64,000 nt of DNA from the IMG/VR virus record IMGVR_UViG_3300034053_000029, positions 32,001-96,000 of that record, one strand, 5' to 3'. Shown one piece after another: positions 5,095-39,803 of the stretch. Numbering within the stretch: position 1 is the stretch's first letter; every line of letters begins with the position of its first letter. A program made the position numbers and the translations under genes. This DNA comes from a virus (lineage: Duplodnaviria; Caudoviricetes). A model generated the notes under the pieces. That model was given only the letters and a program-made list of their open reading frames with translations. It did not search any database and was not told the origin of the DNA.

Positions 5095-6741
5095 TTCTTC
5101 TCAACAGGAACACCAACAACTTTACAATGTTGATCCCTTGGCAACGATTTCTCGCATTCAGCAATAGCAGTTTTATATCTACTCACACTTGAATCGGCAA
5201 ATCCAAGTAGTAACATTAGCAAAATGACACCAGTAAACATACCAATGATGAATGCATAGCCATTGCTATTCAACATACCCAATCCTTTCCATAATTTCTT
5301 CCAGTGTCATCTTGCGTAGGTCATCTACATTGATGAATTGGTTATTCTTTACTTCTTCGTAAGCGAGTTTCTTACCTACTTCGAAACCAGTATTCCATCC
5401 GTCTTGTTTTGATTTACGATCCTCAGACGCTTCTGACCTAAGAAAGCGATGCGAACTAATCAAATTCTGAATGGTCATCTCCACCACGCCAAGTTCCTTG
5501 CGATATTCATCAAGTGCTTCCAACACTGGTCGAGAGTCCATTGCGTCGTAGTAGTAATCCTTATTCACCATTACTACATCGGCATTGCTGAATATTGCCG
5601 TAGGCGATATACCCTGATCGATATCCTTGAATGTTTGTAGGATCATTGTTTCGCTGTGTGGAATGTTCTTATTCGTCATCTTTATTGTCCTCGTATTTCC
5701 TTAGAAATCCTTCTTCATACAATCGTTCTTGCAACCAATCGGAATCTTCGCCTTCGTTAATCTCATTGGCACACGCATACCATCCTTCTGCAAAAATGTC
5801 TTTGATCTCTTGTAGAGTAACACCTCTGAGTATCATAAAGCCAGCCCTTTGACCACCAACAAGTGAGGCAGTAAAAGCGTCAAAACTTTCGTCAAGAGTT
5901 CGATGCGATTTCACGGGCAACTCCATTGCGGATTGATTGTAGAATTAGTGCTTCGGTATCAACTTTACTTTCATTGTTACAGTCATATTCGTTATACCAC
6001 CTGACTTCTTTTTCAGTGATCCACTCAGTCTTTTTCTTCTTGACTGAATCATACGAAGTGAATAAGCCAAAGAAACTTTTTCGCTTTTCTACTGTCCATC
6101 CTTTGAACTCTACTTCAAACTCGATATAACCGTTGTCCCACATTCGCCACTTGCCGGTTGGTTTGCATTCAGAATCGTCGACCCACTTACCCAACGGATA
6201 ATTGATCGTCCAATTTGGCATGCCAACATTTACATAAAATTCTGTGGTCATCATTTTACTCCTACTTTGTAATTTTGACCATTGAATTTAGCGGATAATC
6301 GTTCATATTCTGCACGTTCTCGTTGCAAGTTATCTTCAGCGACCTTACGTTCTTTCTCTACCTTTTCTTGCTCAAGTTTAGATGCCTTTTCATCGGCAAT
6401 CTTCTTAAGTCTTGCAATTTCATTATCACGGAGCACTTTGATTTCTTCAAACAATGCTTCATGGCTTTCAATAATATCATCAAATCCATCATCAGAACCA
6501 TAAGTATAGTTGTATGCATACTCCACGGGAGCACCGTTTATGAGAATGTCAAAGTCATAATCTGGTTCACGTCGATCATGCTCGTGTATATTTTTCCATT
6601 GAATTTGACCCCATCGTTTGGCAATGCTTTCTTTATTAAGATATGTCTCAAGAATAAAGTCTGCGCCCCATGAATCCATAACACCTCCTCGACATGTATC
6701 GACACCATCACGTTTGTATGCAATCAATGTAAATATTGTGG

Positions 6742-8774: not shown

Positions 8775-8956
8775 TCTACTATTCCAAAATGTTCATTGAT
8801 GAAGTGTCCTGCCAATGGCTGAAACTTTTTATATGCAACATCAGTACATTCTTTGATAATCAACTCTGCGAATTTCTCCATTCCTGGCTTGCACATATCA
8901 TACACATCAGGATGATATCCAGCCTGTGCCGCAAGTTCTTTGATTCGTTCATTCAT
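8771..8956 (-). CDS. NERI/HFGVE family microprotein
   Basis: MNERIKELAAQA...KFAELIIKEC...HFGIVE. Confidence 0.75.
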   Translation of the reverse strand: MNERIKELAAQAGYHPDVYDMCKPGMEKFAELIIKECTDVAYKKFQPLAGHFINEHFGIVE

Positions 8957-9121
8957 CTTCGCTTACTCCCGCAATCATTTCATCCATTTCTTCAGCCAAT
9001 TCCGCTAACTCTAATCTCGCAGCAATCCGAGAAGGAATTGAGAAAAAAACATGAGAATCCTCACTGTTTAGTGCTTCCCGCAACCGCAAGTATTCTTCTA
9101 ACACTTCGGAAAATTTACGCA

Positions 9122-9367
9122 TCATTCTACTCCAAAGTGTTCTTCGATTTTACATTTCAAATCCCAGGTAGATATAGTCCGATCTTCTAGCAACTTACAA
9201 TTCTCTTCCTGGACATAACCCACCGCCACTTGAGCGCATTCCTTGACGATCAACTCTGCGAACTTTTTATACATCACCATTGGTTGTGCTACAGTATCTG
9301 TTGGTTCTTCTTCTACTGCTTCTCTTGCTGCCTGTAATAAAAATTCTGCAAGTCGCTCGTTCATCAT
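9122..9367 (-). CDS. NERI/HFGVE family microprotein
   Basis: MMNERLAEFLLQAA...KFAELIVKECA...HFGVE; start trimmed to MMNER. Confidence 0.7.
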   Translation of the reverse strand: MMNERLAEFLLQAAREAVEEEPTDTVAQPMVMYKKFAELIVKECAQVAVGYVQEENCKLLEDRTISTWDLKCKIEEHFGVE

Positions 9368-13348: not shown

Positions 13349-13570
13349 GGTTGATCGTATTTCATTATGTAGTACAACTTCACTTGTTCCATCATTTCTT
13401 TTAGCACAGGATCATTTGCTGCTGCCATCCTGATGCTATGCCACAATTGAGTTTCCTGCAGCGCAGAATTTAATAATCGCTGAGAACTCGGACCTACCAT
13501 GTGCATCATATTTTGCATATCTTGAATGGGACAACATGATTATATTTCACATTGTCCCAAGTGTCAAGAA

Positions 13571-31970: not shown

Positions 31971-32136
31971 TGTTAATCAATTTTATTAATTGCTACCACA
32001 AACAGGACGCAGAACATAATTAAATTAATCACCGCCCAAATTTCCATAGACTCTGTACCAACTCCAACTATGGTCGGTAAAGTAATGTAACCAGTCAAAA
32101 GAAATTCTGTTAAATCGTCCATTTACTATTTATGCT

Positions 32137-32275: not shown

Positions 32276-33088
32276 ATGAAAAATCAAACCTGCAAGCACT
32301 GCAATCAGACACTACCGAACCTTTCACCTAAGGTATTTTCTAACCACGTTAGGTGGTGTGATAAAAATCTGAATAGAAAGAAAGTAGGCCCAATTGGTAT
32401 AGCCAAAAGGGCAAAAACGATCAAACAGAATACTTTTAATAGAAAAATAATATTATGGAAAGAATATTACTTAACACCAAAAATATGTGTTGAATGTAAA
32501 AATGAAATTGATTGGTTTAGAAAAGACCAGATGTGTTGTTCTGCATCGTGTGCAGCAAAAGTTTCTAATAGAAATAAAACACCAGAACAAAAACACAAAG
32601 CAAAAAATTGTGGTAAATTGCTAGGCAGAAATAATAAAAAGGTTAAAGAACCAATTGCACCATATTCAAAAGTGTATAAGTGTACTTGTAAGGTATCTGG
32701 TATTGTTTGGTACAGTAAAACAGTAAAGCATATACACCCTAGTGTAACTGAAACTAAACAACAGTACTCATATCAATGTAGATTCAATTTCCAAATTAAA
32801 ACTTATTCTAATTGGTTTTATTATTCATCAGAGTTGATCAATCATTTTGGTTGGTATGCTGCCAAAAATAAAGGTGACAATCTAACCGGATGTTCTAGAG
32901 ATCACTTATACTCTGTAAATGACGGATTTATCAATAATGTTGATCCAAAAATAATTTCTCATCCAGCTAATTGTGAGATAAAACCACATAAACAAAATCA
33001 ATCCAAAGGCAGATCATCTTCAATAACTTTAACAGAATTGTTAGATAGAATTACAACTTTTGAAAATAAGTATGGGAGAGTGGTATGA
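32276..33088 (+). CDS. HNH-type homing endonuclease with Zn fingers
   Basis: CxxC motifs; SRDHLYS...HPANC...HKQNQSK; start trimmed to MKNQ. Confidence 0.78.
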   Translation: MKNQTCKHCNQTLPNLSPKVFSNHVRWCDKNLNRKKVGPIGIAKRAKTIKQNTFNRKIILWKEYYLTPKICVECKNEIDWFRKDQMCCSASCAAKVSNRNKTPEQKHKAKNCGKLLGRNNKKVKEPIAPYSKVYKCTCKVSGIVWYSKTVKHIHPSVTETKQQYSYQCRFNFQIKTYSNWFYYSSELINHFGWYAAKNKGDNLTGCSRDHLYSVNDGFINNVDPKIISHPANCEIKPHKQNQSKGRSSSITLTELLDRITTFENKYGRVV

Positions 33089-33147
33089 GAATCGAACTCA
33101 TTTGATTAGTTTTGCAGACTAACACCTAACCATTCGGACAACCACTC
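33074..33147 (-). tRNA. tRNA-Cys(GCA)
   Basis: GAGTGGT/ACCACTC acceptor stem, U73, loop CTGCAAA; encoded end is CCC, not CCA. Confidence 0.88.
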
Positions 33148-33188
33148 TCACATAATTACTCTAGTCATTCGGCCAACGTCATATTGTT

Positions 33189-33262
33189 TGGAAGGGGTAC
33201 TTGGAATCGAACCAAGTCTAATGCTGTCAAAGAGCATGGTGCAGCCAATACACTTTACCCCT
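33189..33262 (-). tRNA. tRNA-Gln(TTG)
   Basis: Cloverleaf, loop CTTTGAC, CCA. Confidence 0.9.
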
Positions 33263-33268
33263 ATTGTT

Positions 33269-33342
33269 TGGTGGGTCATGAAGGTACTGCCCCTTCGTCG
33301 ACTGGTTAAAAGCCAGATGTTCTACTATTGAACTAATGACCC
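33269..33342 (-). tRNA. tRNA-Lys(TTT)
   Basis: Loop CTTTTAA, atypical T loop GGCAGTA, CCA. Confidence 0.88.
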
Positions 33343-33918
33343 GAAATAGGCGAGTTTCATTTCTCCCTAAAGAAACTAATCCTCGATCTTCACTGTTATT
33401 CCACAGCATGGCAGACTAGCCACTGTTCCAATTAAAAGGGATAATGACAAGCGGAACATAATCTCTAGTTACTCGTCATTATTTTTCGCTCACGATTTTG
33501 CTCTCTACCACAAAGGGAGCGTGGTAGGCGAGGAAGCACCGAAGTTCTTATTTGCTAATATGTACCAATGCCCACAATGCTACGATTGGAGCAATGACCA
33601 ATCCAATTGCTATAATTCCACCGATCATGTGACTCTCCTATCGAAATAGCAGCAATGGAACTGCTGCACTTACCATAAACAATGCGACACCGTGTATCGC
33701 TAACCATAGACTGAATTTTAGTTCATCTACGACTTTATCAATCACGACGTGTATCCTTGATATCACGCATAATCATTGATTCTGCTAGTTGACGATGTGA
33801 GTGTGATTCAAACGTGGAAAGCCACTCTAGAAATTTAATAATTAAAGTCATGTAATGCTCCTAATGAAAGATAATATTTATGCTGCAATGCAGCACATTT
33901 CTCCTTCTCCAACCCTCA

Positions 33919-34443
33919 TTAGGATTTATTCAAACTAAGTTTCTGCGGCACTTTTAATGACGATTCTATTGCCCTAGAAAGTGGGACTTGTCTAACATAT
34001 TCATTACTTGCTTTGCGGTTATTCCACGGAACAAGATCATATTCTAATATTACGTTACTGTCAAGAACAACAGCACGAGTACAAAGATTATTCATCTGAA
34101 CGTATTTCACCAGAAAGTTATTAGCAAACTTGAATGGGACATTCTTAAATAGCTTTTGTTCTTTTTTCCAAAGACAATCTTTACGTTCAATGCAGTTGAT
34201 CGTTTTAAATGGAAAATCAATATCGCCTTTCCAATTTTCATGTCGCACTTCAACTTCCCATGCAGCAATAACTTTTTTATCAGCATTCAACGATAAAACA
34301 TCTATTCCAAATTTGTTAGGGTTCTCGATATGAAATGGGACATCTGTAATTCTATACTTCAATCTAGCAATCAGTGCATCTTTACCTTTTTTATCCCATT
34401 TATTGTGTTCTTCCTCATCGAATGGTTTTAATGATCCTATCAT
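33919..34443 (-). CDS. Hypothetical protein, possible PD-(D/E)XK fold
   Basis: GIDVL...WEVEVR; start trimmed to MIGSL because the longer ORF overlaps a tRNA. Confidence 0.6.
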   Translation of the reverse strand: MIGSLKPFDEEEHNKWDKKGKDALIARLKYRITDVPFHIENPNKFGIDVLSLNADKKVIAAWEVEVRHENWKGDIDFPFKTINCIERKDCLWKKEQKLFKNVPFKFANNFLVKYVQMNNLCTRAVVLDSNVILEYDLVPWNNRKASNEYVRQVPLSRAIESSLKVPQKLSLNKS

Positions 34444-34458
34444 ATGATCCTCATAAAA

Positions 34459-34553
34459 TGGTACTCCCGACTGGACTCGAACCAGTATCATCAGCCAATC
34501 TAGCCGCAATGCCGAGGTATAAGCTCGGAGTTTTACCGTTAAACTACAGGAGT
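34459..34553 (-). tRNA. tRNA-Ile(TAT) with long variable arm
   Basis: ACTCCTG/CGGGAGT acceptor stem, CCGAG-CTTATAC-CTCGG anticodon arm, about 25-nt extra arm, CCA. Confidence 0.82.
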
Positions 34554-34619
34554 ATTAAATAAAACTGGATACGCATAGTTGAGTAAAAGTCAATTGTGAT
34601 TGCTGTAGGTATCCAAAAC

Positions 34620-34696
34620 TGGTCGGAGATGAGAGATTCGAACTCCCGACATCTTGCTCCCAAAGCAAGCGGTCTACCAGACTGACCTAATCTCCG
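34620..34696 (-). tRNA. tRNA-Pro(TGG)
   Basis: Loop TTTGGGA, CCA. Confidence 0.92.
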
Positions 34697-34703
34697 ATAA
34701 TGC

Positions 34704-34778
34704 TGGCGCCCCCACACGGAATCGAACCATGAACTAGACTTTAGAAGAGTCCTGTTATATCCATTTAACTATAGGGAC
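34704..34778 (-). tRNA. tRNA-Arg(TCT)
   Basis: Loop CTTCTAA, CCA. Confidence 0.92.
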
Positions 34779-34785
34779 GAAATTC

Positions 34786-34864
34786 TGGCTCCGTATCTAG
34801 GGAACGATCCTAGCTAGTCAGTGATTAACAGTCACGCCCATGCACCAAGCTCGGGTTATACGGA
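34786..34864 (-). tRNA. tRNA-Asn(GTT)
   Basis: Loop CTGTTAA, G73, CCA. Confidence 0.9.
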
Positions 34865-34872
34865 ATTGTTAC

Positions 34873-34946
34873 TGGTGCCTATTGACGGAATCGAACCGCC
34901 ATAACAAGATTACAAATCTAGCGTAATACCATTATACGAAATAGGC
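34873..34946 (-). tRNA. tRNA-Thr(TGT)
   Basis: Loop TTTGTAA, CCA. Confidence 0.9.
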
Positions 34947-34953
34947 ATAAAAC

Positions 34954-35026
34954 TGGTTGCGACCACGGGAGTTGAACCCGCTTCCATCTTGGCTTATGAG
35001 GCCAGAGTCTACCACTAGAAGTCGCA
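34954..35026 (-). tRNA. tRNA-Met or Ile2 (CAT), short D arm
   Basis: Loop CTCATAA, TGCGACT/GGTCGCA acceptor stem, CCA. Confidence 0.8.
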
Positions 35027-35259
35027 ATTAATTAAAAGTATCTTGTCTTGGGTTTAAGGACACCATTTAATCCTCCTTACAGGTCTCTAGTAATCATCTA
35101 GCATAGCAAGGATATTGACAGTGACTTTGACAAGCAAGTTCGTTGATTAGACGATTTGTTCCCATACTTATTTAAACGGAATGACTTTTTGCTCCTTATT
35201 TTTATGTCCGGTAAGCAAACGGACTGCCATTAAATTGATTGCTGTAATCATTCCAAAAC

Positions 35260-35335
35260 TGGTGGAGACGGTCGGAATCAAACCGACCACAGAATCATTG
35301 CAAGTGATTCTCGCCCTCTTGGTACATTCGCCCCC
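35260..35335 (-). tRNA. tRNA-Ala(TGC)
   Basis: Loop CTTGCAA, G3:U70, CCA. Confidence 0.9.
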
Positions 35336-35393
35336 GTTATTTCTGTAACATATGCATAGTATATAGTGTCTGCATATTGAAGTCAAGTAATTT

Positions 35394-35476
35394 TGGTGGG
35401 ACAGGAGAGATTTGAACTCTCAAGCCGAAGCGTCTGAGCTTAAATCAGATGTGTTTGCCAATTTCACCACAGTCCC
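35394..35476 (-). tRNA. tRNA-Leu(TAA)
   Basis: Loop TTTAAGC, variable arm, CCA. Confidence 0.9.
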
Positions 35477-36229
35477 ATGTTCTTTAATTTGTTCAAGAAT
35501 ACCATCCCAATTAAATGATCTCTTATCTGAACTTAGTAATATTATTATGCTAACTCCAAGCTCTATTTCACAAAGATTAATTTTTTGTATTTGTAATTCT
35601 TGTATTTTGATTATTCTTTCGCTTCGTTCATTTGTAGATTTCTTACACCACATACTCTTTGGGTCTAAATAAACATTAAAATCTGGTAAATAAAAATCTG
35701 GTTCATACTTACGACCATCTGACAATACTAGTGGTGTTGGTCTCGACCACACAATTCTATTTTTATCCAATATATTAGCAACTTGCCATTCATGTATAGA
35801 TTCTAAATTAAACTTTAACCCAAATGAATCTATGTAAGGTATATAATTTCTTTTCCACCGTAATGTTGGATTTGCTGCTACTCCAGCTATACTTGGTTTC
35901 CATTTTCCAATGATGAACGATTCGTGTCGAGATTCTATTTGTTTTGATATACTTTGGTGAGTATCTTTTGTGTGCCCTTTACTCCAGTTCATCTTATCCT
36001 TAATTTCTTGAGGTAAGTTTTCATATCTTTGTTTGGCAGGTACTCTGCCACCATTTATATATGATTCTTTCGTACCTTTGCTATTTTTCTCTTTACATTT
36101 CGGACATTGTGTTGATCTAGGACTACACATCAAATTGCCAGATAAGTTTATATATTTTGCAATCTGATTACACCCATAATGACAAAGTTCTGCTGTTATT
36201 ATTTGTTCTGATTTTCTATGTTTTCCCAT
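35420..36229 (-). CDS. Putative homing endonuclease, PD-(D/E)XK type
   Basis: N-terminal CxxxC/CxxC; YEPDFYL...YLDPKS; start at MGKH after GAGG; C-terminus runs into tRNA-Leu. Confidence 0.78.
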   Translation of the reverse strand: MGKHRKSEQIITAELCHYGCNQIAKYINLSGNLMCSPRSTQCPKCKEKNSKGTKESYINGGRVPAKQRYENLPQEIKDKMNWSKGHTKDTHQSISKQIESRHESFIIGKWKPSIAGVAANPTLRWKRNYIPYIDSFGLKFNLESIHEWQVANILDKNRIVWSRPTPLVLSDGRKYEPDFYLPDFNVYLDPKSMWCKKSTNERSERIIKIQELQIQKINLCEIELGVSIIILLSSDKRSFNWDGILEQIKEHGTVVKLANTSDLSSDASA

Positions 36230-36301
36230 TTGTGCCTCGATGATAAATGTATACATATATTTATCATTTTACACTCTTGAGTATACCAATTATTTAAAAT
36301 C

Positions 36302-36375
36302 TGGTACTTCGTGATGGTTATGCTCCACCGTAGCCGCTTTATCAAAACGGTATTCTTCTATTGAATTAACGAAGC
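36302..36375 (-). tRNA. tRNA-Ile(GAT)
   Basis: Loop TTGATAA, CCA. Confidence 0.88.
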
Positions 36376-36383
36376 ATTATTAC

Positions 36384-36470
36384 TGGAGCAGGAGACAGGA
36401 ATCGAACCTGCTTACGGCTTTCGCCTTACTTGATTGGAAGTCAAGCGCCTAACCAATAGGCTACACCTGC
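36384..36470 (-). tRNA. tRNA-Gly(TCC) with long variable arm
   Basis: CTTGA-CTTCCAA-TCAAG, U73, extra arm GGC-GAAA-GCC, CCA. Confidence 0.85.
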
Positions 36471-36477
36471 ATAATTT

Positions 36478-36551
36478 TGGCGAGTCTGTAAGGAATTTAA
36501 CCCTATCCGCCGAGGTTGGAACTCGGAATGCTAACGTAACACTTCAGACCC
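36478..36551 (-). tRNA. tRNA-Trp(CCA)
   Basis: Loop TTCCAAC, G73, CCA. Confidence 0.88.
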
Positions 36552-36560
36552 ATATTGTTT

Positions 36561-36632
36561 TGGTGCCCAATGAAGGAGTCGAACCTTCTCAGTCGTGATT
36601 CGTATTCACAACGCCGTTCCGTCGGATTGGAC
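36561..36632 (-). tRNA. tRNA-Arg(ACG)
   Basis: Loop ATACGAA, short D arm, CCA. Confidence 0.82.
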
Positions 36633-36638
36633 TTTATT

Positions 36639-36714
36639 TGGTGCCGCCTCGTGGTTTCGATCCACGCTTTCCACCTTTTCAGGGTAGCACTTTCACCAGA
36701 TTAGTTTAAGCGGC
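36639..36714 (-). tRNA. tRNA-Phe(GAA)
   Basis: Loop CTGAAAA, CCA. Confidence 0.9.
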
Positions 36715-36721
36715 AATGATT

Positions 36722-36808
36722 TGGTGCGAGTGACAGGCATCGAACCTGTAAGACCGTTAAGTCGCTGACTTCTAAAGACAGTGTGTTTCCCAATTTCACC
36801 ACACTCGC
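36722..36808 (-). tRNA. tRNA-Leu(TAG)
   Basis: Loop TTTAGAA, variable arm, CCA. Confidence 0.9.
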
Positions 36809-36818
36809 ATTGTGTTAC

Positions 36819-36915
36819 TGGAGGAAAAGGTGAGATTCGAACTCACGGCCCACGGATGGTTACGGGACGCTGGTTTTCAAGACCAGAGCAATAAACCGGA
36901 CTCTGCCACTTTTCC
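36819..36915 (-). tRNA. tRNA-Ser(TGA)
   Basis: Loop CTTGAAA, long variable arm, CCA. Confidence 0.92.
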
Positions 36916-36925
36916 ATTGTGTTAC

Positions 36926-37015
36926 TGGCGGAAGAATGAGGTCACGATCCCCATGCCATATTTCAGGCACCTATCGTTTAGCAAACGATGCTGTCACCTT
37001 GACAATTAATCTTCC
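36926..37015 (-). tRNA. tRNA-Ser(GCT)
   Basis: Loop TTGCTAA, long variable arm, G73, CCA. Confidence 0.9.
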
Positions 37016-37024
37016 ATTTAATTT

Positions 37025-37100
37025 TGGTCAGAGTGGGGAATTACGATATCCCAACCTCCTGTATCCAAGACAGGCCGTCTTCCTTTGACAATACACTCAG
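37025..37100 (-). tRNA. tRNA-Pro(TGG), second divergent copy
   Basis: CCTGT-CTTGGAT-ACAGG, CCA. Confidence 0.82.
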
Positions 37101-37108
37101 ATAATTCT

Positions 37109-37183
37109 TGGTATCGCACTGGGGTTTCGATCCCCACTCACTAGTTTGAAGGACTAGTTGCCACGCCAGCTGCATCGTGCGAT
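37109..37183 (-). tRNA. tRNA-Glu(TTC)
   Basis: CTAGT-CCTTCAA-ACTAG (C at position 33), CCA. Confidence 0.8.
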
Positions 37184-37294
37184 GTATAAATTCTTGCTAT
37201 GTCCTTTTGCGAGGACTCTAGTTGTGGCTTGAGAGGCATCGTTCCTAGAATCGAGAGGCACTTCCACCAAACCGTAAAGCGACGGTCTGCATTT

Positions 37295-37369
37295 TGGCGA
37301 CACGGAAGGGAATCAAACCCTCATAAGTCTCCTAGACAGGGAGATGCATTATCAATCTGCCACCGTGCC
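37295..37369 (-). tRNA. tRNA-Asp(GTC)
   Basis: Loop CTGTCTA, G73, CCA. Confidence 0.9.
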
Positions 37370-37375
37370 AAATTT

Positions 37376-37454
37376 TGGGGTGATCGACCAGACTCTCACT
37401 GGCTAATATACTACTTCACAGGTAGTAGGCTCGAATACTTCGCTTTCGATCACC
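37376..37454 (-). tRNA. tRNA-His(GTG)
   Basis: Loop CTGTGAA, G-1:C73, CCA. Confidence 0.88.
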
Positions 37455-37835
37455 ATTGAATTCTCTCTCAGATCAAGGGCGTGTCTGAGATTGTGTAATT
37501 TGCCCGACTGCACTAAGGCAGTCTTACACTTTTGAATGATTAAGAGCATTCACGACTCTAATTATTCTTTTGTGGAAGTTAGGAAGTCGTTTCGATGGCG
37601 GGTCATTGGCGCCCTACTTTCCACCGCTAACTTCCACGAATTCTGTGGGGTGTGGATTTTACGAGCTTGCCTAACGCCCCTTTGCTCGATCTACGGGAGT
37701 GATCCAGCCTGCAGTAACCAAATCATCCTATCTTAATTCAAATCTTCTTTAGAATCGACTCACATGAAACAATGTAGGCTGTTGGATGCGCCCCATTTGA
37801 CCGAACCAACTTCGGCTCATGTAAATCTCAAAAGA

Positions 37836-37894
37836 GATAAATAATAATGCTAGTCACGAAGCGTCAACTTCTACTAGCCCTAGACATTCTAACA
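37836..37894 (+). promoter_or_regulatory. Late promoter plus structured leader, family A copy 3
   Basis: GATAAATA 37836-37843; 49 bp (37846-37894) identical to 18817-18865. Confidence 0.78.
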
Positions 37895-37912
37895 ACTTGA
37901 AAGGATCAAATT

Positions 37913-38743
37913 ATGTCCAGCACCAGTATTTATCCATCAACGAAGATCGTTCCTTATGTTTATAAGTTGACTCATAAAGTCACTAAACAATTTTACTTTG
38001 GTGTTAGGTTTAGTAAAAACCAAAAACTACCATCGCACATCGATTTAGGAACACATTATTTCACATCATCGAAATGCATCAAACAACTTGGTTTTGATAA
38101 CTTTGACACCGAAATCCTAGCAGAATTTCCTTTCGACGGCGGAAGAATTGATGCTTACTTACTTGAACAACAATTAATCGAAGAGAACTTCTCAAATTCA
38201 CTCATCTTGAATAAGAACATATCAAAAACCAATAAAGGTTCTTTTTACTTTTGGATGCACAAAGGATCAACTTGTCAAGCAATCTCAGATGCAAACAAAG
38301 GCAGGAAATTAAGAGATTATGATTACAAACATTCGCTAGAAAGTAAAAATAAAATTAGCGAAGGTGTTGGTCGTAAATGTTCTTGCATATTATGCAAAGT
38401 CGAACTATCATCAATTACATCACTTAAATCACACTTCAAAAGTTGTTTTGAAGATTGGGAATCGATGCAGTGTTTATTCCCAAACTTAAATCAAAAGAAA
38501 CATCTCATCAAACCAAAAAGAATTAAGTCGCCCAAAATTATAAAACAAAAGCGAATCAAAAAAGAATTTAACAACTGTTTAGAATGTCAATCTAAAGTAA
38601 ATCGTCGTTCTAAAAAGTTTTGTAATTCGTCTTGTGCAGCAAAATACAACAATAAACTAAGACCCAAAGGGCACGAATCAAGAATAAAAAGCAATGAATC
38701 GAGAATAAACAAATTAAAATCTAGGTGTGCGTCTAATCTCTAG
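37913..38743 (+). CDS. Seg-like GIY-YIG homing endonuclease
   Basis: PYVYKL...FYFGVR, YFTSS, C-terminal Zn motifs; starts MSSTSIY. Confidence 0.85.
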   Translation: MSSTSIYPSTKIVPYVYKLTHKVTKQFYFGVRFSKNQKLPSHIDLGTHYFTSSKCIKQLGFDNFDTEILAEFPFDGGRIDAYLLEQQLIEENFSNSLILNKNISKTNKGSFYFWMHKGSTCQAISDANKGRKLRDYDYKHSLESKNKISEGVGRKCSCILCKVELSSITSLKSHFKSCFEDWESMQCLFPNLNQKKHLIKPKRIKSPKIIKQKRIKKEFNNCLECQSKVNRRSKKFCNSSCAAKYNNKLRPKGHESRIKSNESRINKLKSRCASNL

Positions 38744-38995
38744 AAAATAAACACACACCTAAAATTTTAACAAGCAGACTTCTTTCCGACAATACTTTCA
38801 CATAATAAGGGACGACTCGAACGTCCATCGTCGGCTTGAGCGCCGATCTGCCTCCCAGCACTTATTCCACTACTGGCATCATCTTCGATCTGTCTTTTGC
38901 TTGTTGATCAGACAAGTGCTTTATCGTTCTTACCCAATCTCAGGCGACCGACTTGAACGGTGCATCGAACTATGTCGCTTCACAGCGAGATATTT

Positions 38996-39085
38996 TGGTG
39001 GGGCATGGACGGAATCGAACCTCTTGCCTAGAAGGACTGCGTTTACAGCGCAGCGGCGACACCAGTCTGCCCTTATTGCACACCC
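38996..39085 (-). tRNA. tRNA-Tyr(GTA)
   Basis: Loop CTGTAAA, variable arm, CCA. Confidence 0.9.
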
Positions 39086-39268
39086 CAAATTTATTAGCGG
39101 AGAAGTACCATCTTCTCCTTTCACCTGTACTCAGGATCACCTTTTGGGCGTGACATTAACTGTTTGGTAATGTTGCCTCAGTGGATACCAACCACCTTAC
39201 TAGAGGTTACAGTAGCATTGTCTACTCAACAATAACAGTCAAATTTATTACGCACTCTTTTGAATGCG

Positions 39269-39359
39269 GATTGTTAAGTATTCTTGAAAGAATCGAACTT
39301 TCGTCCTACCCGCCCCCTGCCGGAAAGCCTCAGACACCATTTAAGAACACTTAACAATC
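39269..39359 (-). ncRNA. tRNA-like small RNA with T arm and 17-bp closing stem
   Basis: GATTGTTAAGTGTTCTT / AAGAATACTTAACAATC; GAAAG-TTCGATT-CTTTC. Confidence 0.6.
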
Positions 39360-39531
39360 GGTGGCTCGATCACTCACACCACCTGATGTTTTCGATCTAT
39401 CTCCCACGATAGCTTCTCAACACCCTCCGACTTTTCACACCATGTTTTAAGTGCGGTGCCTGGCCTCGTTACCAGATAACTTAACACACTCTGCTACTGA
39501 GACTACATTTTATTCTACTTCTGAAACCTTG

Positions 39532-39648
39532 TCAATAACTATTTTGGTACTTCTCTTTCCGTTTGAAGGAACCCTTACCCTTCTTGGAACCAACAACACG
39601 CATCCGGTACTTTGGAGTGCGAAGGTCTTTAGCGATTGGGTTTTTCAT
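39532..39648 (-). CDS. arfA: ArfA-like alternative ribosome-rescue factor (38 aa)
   Basis: KNPIAKDLRTPKYRMRVVGSKKGKGSFKRK aligns by eye with the ArfA core [29 protein letters not shown]. Confidence 0.75.
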   Translation of the reverse strand: MKNPIAKDLRTPKYRMRVVGSKKGKGSFKRKEKYQNSY

Positions 39649-39803
39649 TTTACTTACCTTTAGCAAAAAGTGTATAACCAGAAACCCGTTGCAACACAAC
39701 CACCGCAAGCATATTATTAACACATTTCCACTCACGATGCACAGGATTAAAAACGTAGTATTTCATTTCCGTATTCCTCTTGTTGCGTCATTCGATGGAA
39801 CGA

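Follow-up and report, generated by a model that had tools for sequence, protein, structure and literature searches.

We analyzed a 64,000-nt stretch of DNA (the window; positions 32,001 to 96,000 of IMG/VR record IMGVR_UViG_3300034053_000029) from a complete 210,171-bp phage record. The phage is T4-like, as is its major capsid gene (Gp23, E 2.5e-135), and the minus strand of the window carries a long tRNA array. A sigma70-type promoter (TTGACA-17-TAAAAT; 39507..39535, minus strand) that matches the consensus at 11 of 12 positions heads this array of tRNAs and non-coding RNAs, and equivalent promoters were read from the sequence of two related loci, L090 and L091. The interval under study lies between two divergent tRNA genes of the minus strand, a tRNA-Tyr(GUA) with an encoded CCA (about 38996..39086) and a tRNA-His(GUG) with G-1 and C73 (37376..37454), as the preliminary description of this DNA had stated. 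Both were missed by ARAGORN and by the Rfam gathering scan, and their identities come from reading the sequence; tRNA-Tyr also gave a weak tRNA-clan match, and its L090 orthologue was called tRNA-Tyr. Many tRNAs of the array (33000-39100, minus strand; Tyr, His, Glu, Pro, Ser-GCT, Arg-ACG and others) were too divergent for default ARAGORN and were mostly seen only with a lowered threshold, at which Tyr and His still escaped. Immediately before the array promoter lies a 39-aa ArfA-like ribosome-rescue ORF (39535-39651, minus strand; Pfam PF03889, E 2e-8), whose position is kept in L090, L091 and a third related locus, L094. We also noted a second structured block without an ORF at 39090-39500 (minus strand; folding z -3.1), which has a long stem and a T arm cap and is homologous to L090 12889-13184 (E 1e-37). 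In the tRNA-Asp/tRNA-Glu interval, a 106-nt non-tRNA element of no known family (37188-37293, minus strand) is 88% identical to L091 13325-13430.

Between tRNA-Tyr and tRNA-His, a 941-nt cassette on the plus strand (37831..38771) separates an upstream segment A from a downstream segment B, and structured RNA was confirmed on both of its sides. The cassette has 32% G+C, as against 45-48% in its flanks, and holds one ORF, to which leader and tail add about 110 nt. Its boundaries were obtained by placing freshwater metagenome contigs on the region, which gave two partial contig joints (runs X1 and X4). In the X1 contig, 37830 was joined to 38804 with 36 letters between, the short side of this joint being 26 nt plus the 36 homologous letters at 80% likeness. 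These letters hold a 10-mer identical to 38772-38781 that is preceded by 4 other letters; the cassette therefore spans 37831-38771, replaces 4 nt of the X1 allele and extends beyond the limits first proposed for it (about 37830-38745). In the X4 contig, 37750 was joined to 38772, and a different 34-nt hairpin stood in for module B1 and the cassette. The uninterrupted alleles that the preliminary description had proposed to look for were thus found, since both contigs join the flanks without the cassette. Pieces of the endonuclease gene were detected in the same metagenome samples as the cassette-less joints and one X5 contig runs across 37830 into the cassette leader, so alleles of both kinds occur. 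The cassette is a true, polymorphic insertion, present in some strains only, and in this respect the first description was right. The gap from tRNA to tRNA in the cassette-less allele is about 600 nt. Since the X4 joint shares the junction of the cassette, the same junction also marks module exchange; most likely, the cassette sits at a boundary between RNA modules, antisense to the tRNA array.

The ORF of the cassette (37913..38743, plus strand) is an intact frame of 276 aa for a free-standing endonuclease of the GIY-YIG type (PHROG 314, homing endonuclease, E 1e-17), in agreement with the earlier assignment. Residues Y17, Y28, G30, E85 and N100 are kept in its homologues, at Tyr/Gly/Glu/Asn positions typical of GIY-YIG domains, and the C-terminus is Cys-rich with a weak NUMOD3. 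The structure of the N-terminal domain was predicted with a pLDDT of 84-95 over residues 11-100, and the best fold matches were all GIY-YIG domains (I-TevI, UvrC) at weak E-values of 0.2-1. Rfam gave no signal for group I or group II introns on either half around the cassette. Catalytic-domain residues, no intron and cassette-less alleles at the site together identify a seg-type free-standing GIY-YIG endonuclease. Phage tRNA clusters are known to harbour endonuclease genes, as shown by T4 segB and its relatives: segB, which encodes a GIY-YIG homing endonuclease of the free-standing kind, lies beside rnaC/rnaD in the T4 tRNA cluster (PMC2988022, PMC13096335), and SegB homologues are enriched near tRNAs (PMC13096335). 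As with segB, an intron-free GIY-YIG gene lies here in a phage tRNA array, beside stable RNAs of unknown function and in some strains only. Unlike segB, the cassette is antisense to the array, as is segD in T4 (PMC2988022), its endonuclease belongs to a different GIY-YIG subfamily, and a shared hairpin leader leaves the ribosome-binding site uncovered. T4 rnaC and rnaD had no sequence similarity to segments A and B (z -1.5 to -0.2).

The cassette leader (37836..37888, plus strand) has a late-promoter-like ATAAATA followed by a conserved two-stem hairpin. It recurs, with changed stems, before four other endonuclease-like ORFs of the genome and also in L094 and L179, and Rfam gave no match for the copy in the window. 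The leader copies, which accompany divergent GIY-YIG genes, were located at genome positions 12909, 50814, 69831, 86025 and 121726, at L094 6485-6585 and at L179 1896-1989, and their shared stems covary between copies. A second late-promoter-like octamer, a putative promoter, lies on the minus strand within codons 5-8 of the endonuclease gene (37927..37934) and points into segment B. TATTTAT, which is the late-promoter motif on the opposite strand, occupied that place (codons 5-7) in 6/6 leader-bearing endonuclease genes inspected. ATAAATA was not enriched genome-wide, and the promoter calls are therefore based on position and on the T4 consensus. With this octamer the cassette may bring along a late promoter for the downstream half; in T4, promoters are embedded in seg genes (PMC2988022). 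At its far end, an inverted repeat with 26-bp arms (38716..38767) spans the stop codon and is a candidate terminator that a strict terminator scan did not call.

Segment A contains three modules, all on the minus strand. A1 (38930..38992) is a set of small hairpins, one of them T-loop-like, and is not conserved in L090. A2 (38900..38916) is a 5-bp hairpin with the loop CTGATCA, which holds a palindromic hexamer and is also Ile-anticodon-like; the loop is kept in relatives, and the stem beneath it differs in both L090 and L094. A3 (38803..38867) folds as a tRNA-like cloverleaf without CCA both here and in L090, with a 5-nt D loop, a canonical T arm and a 6-nt anticodon loop (7 nt in L090); its acceptor stem has a different sequence in L090 with the pairing retained. 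Judged from its sequence, A3 is a minimal tRNA mimic with the normal order of arms. It is like the YrlA bacterial Y RNAs in mimicking the tRNA elbow without a normal acceptor end (PMC4201824). YrlA RNAs are characterized by the permuted order T-AS-D and by a Ro60 gene within 4 kb. The permuted order occurs in modules of L090, L091 and L179, whereas A3 of the window is not permuted; no Ro60/TROVE gene was found in the genome, and Rfam gave no Y RNA match. The permuted modules (T arm, closed acceptor stem, D arm) span L090 14447-14586, L091 13691-13840 and L179 about 5360-5432 and sit inside a terminal helix, which has bulges in the L090 and L091 copies. The same helix occurs at L094 8837-8938, where the tRNA-like core that it encloses is not permuted. 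None of the elements of this kind in L090, L091 and L094 matched Rfam.

Segment B starts with B1 (37757..37827, minus strand), a three-way junction with complementary loops GTTGG/CCAAC and a folding z of -3.1. B1 was present in X1, X2 and X5 and was replaced by the 34-nt hairpin in X4; it is an exchangeable module. Behind it lies an undescribed RNA of about 280 nt, which we call B-core (37460..37739, minus strand) and which has a homologue in L094 (nhmmer E 2e-9). B-core comprises a hairpin with a CTGCAG loop (37725-37700) within a stretch nearly identical in L094, a probable H-type pseudoknot (37688-37647), a long helix (37637-37572) and a conserved 3' domain (37567-37466). Where B-core begins, this phage and L094 agree in 38 of 39 aligned columns. 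The pseudoknot stems differ between this phage, X1 and L094 and still pair, the X1 sequence having been rebuilt only from its listed differences to the window. The 3' domain was aligned from four phages, and 13 of its 19 pairs had changed on both sides, a count taken on the same small sample of four sequences from which the structure was derived; it was reached by none of 500 shuffles, and slid controls were far lower. All three helices of the domain show compensatory changes, helix 1 being fully paired with changes at 6/6 pairs, and RNAalifold independently recovered helices 1 and 3. The RNA modules had no match in Rfam 15, neither half gave an Rfam signal for tmRNA or RNase P RNA, and we found no description of the B-core RNA in the literature. 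These comparisons indicate that B-core is a conserved RNA uncatalogued in Rfam, which probably contains a pseudoknot and whose 3' domain covaries strongly.

The covariation also bears on whether the flanks could be mostly decaying, functionless tRNA debris, a neutral site that the endonuclease had entered. The folding z-score of the 5' half (-0.2; -2.4 for the 3' half and -2.4 for the joined sequence) gives segment A no folding excess, and the missing CCA and 6-nt anticodon loop of A3 fit such decay. Against it stand the compensatory changes in the three 3'-domain helices, A2, the A3 acceptor stem and the pseudoknot stem, as well as the near identity to L094 at the start of B-core. For B-core the debris explanation is largely refuted, and for the flanks overall we regard it as hardly credible.

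The preliminary description had read the two segments as a ROOL/GOLLD-class giant RNA split by the cassette. Neither half matched ROOL (RF03087) or GOLLD (RF02032) at E<=10, and the genome and the related loci, including uninterrupted homologues, were negative too. In this search, the uninterrupted homologues and positive controls stood in for the joined sequence. As controls, two L. salivarius pMP118 ROOL halves of similar sizes, possibly in the RF03087 seed, matched RF03087 at E 4e-16 and 8e-5, and the whole GOLLD of Caulobacter phage RB23 matched at E 3e-29. Because a 241-nt fragment of this GOLLD escaped the same search, it is chiefly the uninterrupted L094 block that carries the negative result for GOLLD. 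Direct local alignment to the ROOL and GOLLD controls gave z about 0. The size and location of the joined RNA are those of ROOL (a phage RNA of about 550-660 nt near tRNAs), a likeness that is not diagnostic. ROOL is further marked by intertwined, end-paired and co-inherited 5' and 3' regions, and here the halves lie apart or show no linkage in L090, L091 and L094. For GOLLD, we found no match to the conserved ~416-nt 3' domain in the phage's own genome or in the L094 record, and the space between the tRNAs is about 600 nt, whereas GOLLD RNAs often exceed 800 nt. By eye, 37625-37594 resembles a short ROOL consensus stretch, and these words probably drove the first ROOL reading; the resemblance is not retained in L094. 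An invariant CCTTGA is also present in the ROOL consensus. These likenesses, with the fit in size and location and the escape of a true GOLLD piece, would suit a very divergent ROOL or GOLLD RNA. We consider such an RNA very unlikely, given that the controls match where the halves, the genome and the homologues do not, that the control alignments show nothing above chance and that L094 lacks the ROOL-like stretch; the ROOL/GOLLD assignment is not upheld. In common with ROOL and GOLLD (PMC12286853), the RNA here is a phage RNA that belongs to a tRNA island and has many helices, palindromic loops and a probable pseudoknot; it differs in having no model match, no conserved end-to-end helix, separable and reshuffled parts and a conserved core of only about 280 nt. 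As a separate observation, a hairpin loop at L090 about 13490-13503, GGGTCGCTCCC, is identical to a ROOL consensus word and close to one in T4 rnaD, and is absent from the window.

A perfect 9-bp complement had been proposed to link the far ends of the joined RNA, its 5' partner lying in A1. The complement exists (38943-38935 with 37493-37485) and extends to 13/14 pairs; 9 perfect pairs between the halves were reached by 19% of shuffles and a 14-mer with one mismatch by 1.4%. A stretch of the endonuclease ORF near 38280 is complementary to this same 3' motif over 10 nt, one more than the 9-bp match. No equivalent partner is kept in the relatives, where the best complements are 6-8 nt and the 8-mer of L090 lies inside its own endonuclease gene. 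Two successive local helices share the 3' motif (37498-37485), as the 3' strand of the first and the 5' strand of the second, and compensatory changes back each of them. On this structure, the long-range pairing would clash with two covarying helices.

We then compared the locus with three related loci (L090, L091 and L094) reached via neighbouring proteins and with the two partial contig joints. In L090, where a neighbour protein is 93% identical, the order is an A homologue, tRNA-Gly, a GIY-YIG gene, tRNA-Glu and a block ending in the 3' domain of B. L094 carries a whole B-core (8947-9235, E 2e-9) after another tRNA-like element and before tRNA-Tyr, and it has no A homologue (A versus the L094 block z -0.5; B versus the block z 22). 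L090 and L091 match mainly the 3' domain of B-core, the match of L091 being weak at the sequence level. The parts are thus separable, being found apart or re-paired in the relatives, and the boundary used by the cassette is also that of the X4 swap. Given this reshuffling in three related phages, a string of modules is the best reading of the interval. A single fixed giant RNA closed end to end, as first envisaged, does not survive this comparison and the capture of the 3' motif by local helices. Of the two findings that the preliminary description had named as telling against its reading, we obtained the lack of any large-RNA model match, yet the two halves are adjacent in the closest relatives (X1 and X4). 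Pattern scans of viral contigs and metagenomes for further relatives gave chance matches or nothing, except for the contig of L094; no relatives were found in bacterial genomes, blastn gave no match among 50,697 GenBank phages, and the 3'-domain model R1, run on about 170 loci and 50 records, recovered there only the four sequences on which it was trained. The RNA modules thus appear to be confined to a small phage clade.

The order of palindromic hairpin, tRNA-like domain and B domain recurs in the window, L094 and L090. Because of this recurrence we keep in play, as unlikely but worth weighing, the reading of A and B as domains of a single composite RNA, 450-600 nt long and of a new class, whose two pieces are made separately and meet in trans or whose split is tolerated. 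The adjacency of the halves in X1 and X4 and the 13/14-bp complement agree with such an RNA, and palindromic loops could link separate molecules. It is opposed by the tRNAs that separate A-type and B-type blocks in L090, by tRNA-like domains ahead of B that are unrelated in sequence between phages and by a long-range pair that relatives lack and that could form only at the cost of two covarying helices.

The reading that we favour as probable is that an intron-free homing cassette occupies a neutral joint in a string of RNA modules, with transcription as part of the tRNA operon, host processing and a cassette promoter that possibly restarts the downstream part. The array would be transcribed from the sigma70 promoter at 39535, and host tRNA-processing enzymes would cut the transcript at tRNA borders and perhaps at A3. 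The cassette would spread by intronless homing, cutting cassette-less alleles that are then repaired by copying the cassette. Splicing would not be needed, because no conserved helix crosses the insertion site. The late-promoter motif in the first endonuclease codons could restart transcription of B1, B-core and tRNA-His. For segment A we favour tRNA mimicry, which could serve as a decoy or as a processing signal, and A2 and A3, as mimics of an anticodon loop and a tRNA, might conceivably occupy host proteins that bind or cut tRNAs. B-core would be a compact RNA that might perhaps self-associate via palindromic loops, somewhat like the ornate RNAs without being one of them.

Palindromic loops form symmetric kissing bridges in OLE and GOLLD, where palindrome switches were taken as evidence of intermolecular bridges (PMC12286853). 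We counted 8 palindromic loops against a shuffled mean of 1.6 and maximum of 7 (300 shuffles), the 8 comprising only 4 distinct hexamers, two of which are equally explained as tRNA anticodon loops. One switch, TGATCA/TCATGA, keeps the palindrome and parallels those of OLE and GOLLD (PMC12286853). The modules could be one new class of phage RNA that self-assembles via palindromic kissing loops and is made in two pieces, the second from the endonuclease-borne promoter, with the phage dependent on the insert; we hold this to be distinctly improbable.

New at this locus are a conserved, uncatalogued RNA of ~280 nt, a minimal tRNA mimic, natural alleles with and without the insert, and swapped modules. 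The alleles with and without the insert and those with swapped modules are ready test pairs for the role of stable non-tRNA RNAs in phage tRNA islands, and the same pairs bear on how genes that lie behind an antisense selfish cassette escape being silenced by it. Elsewhere in the genome (122482-122586, plus strand), the 3'-domain model gave a weak second match (22 bits, E 0.016) just behind another leader-bearing endonuclease gene.
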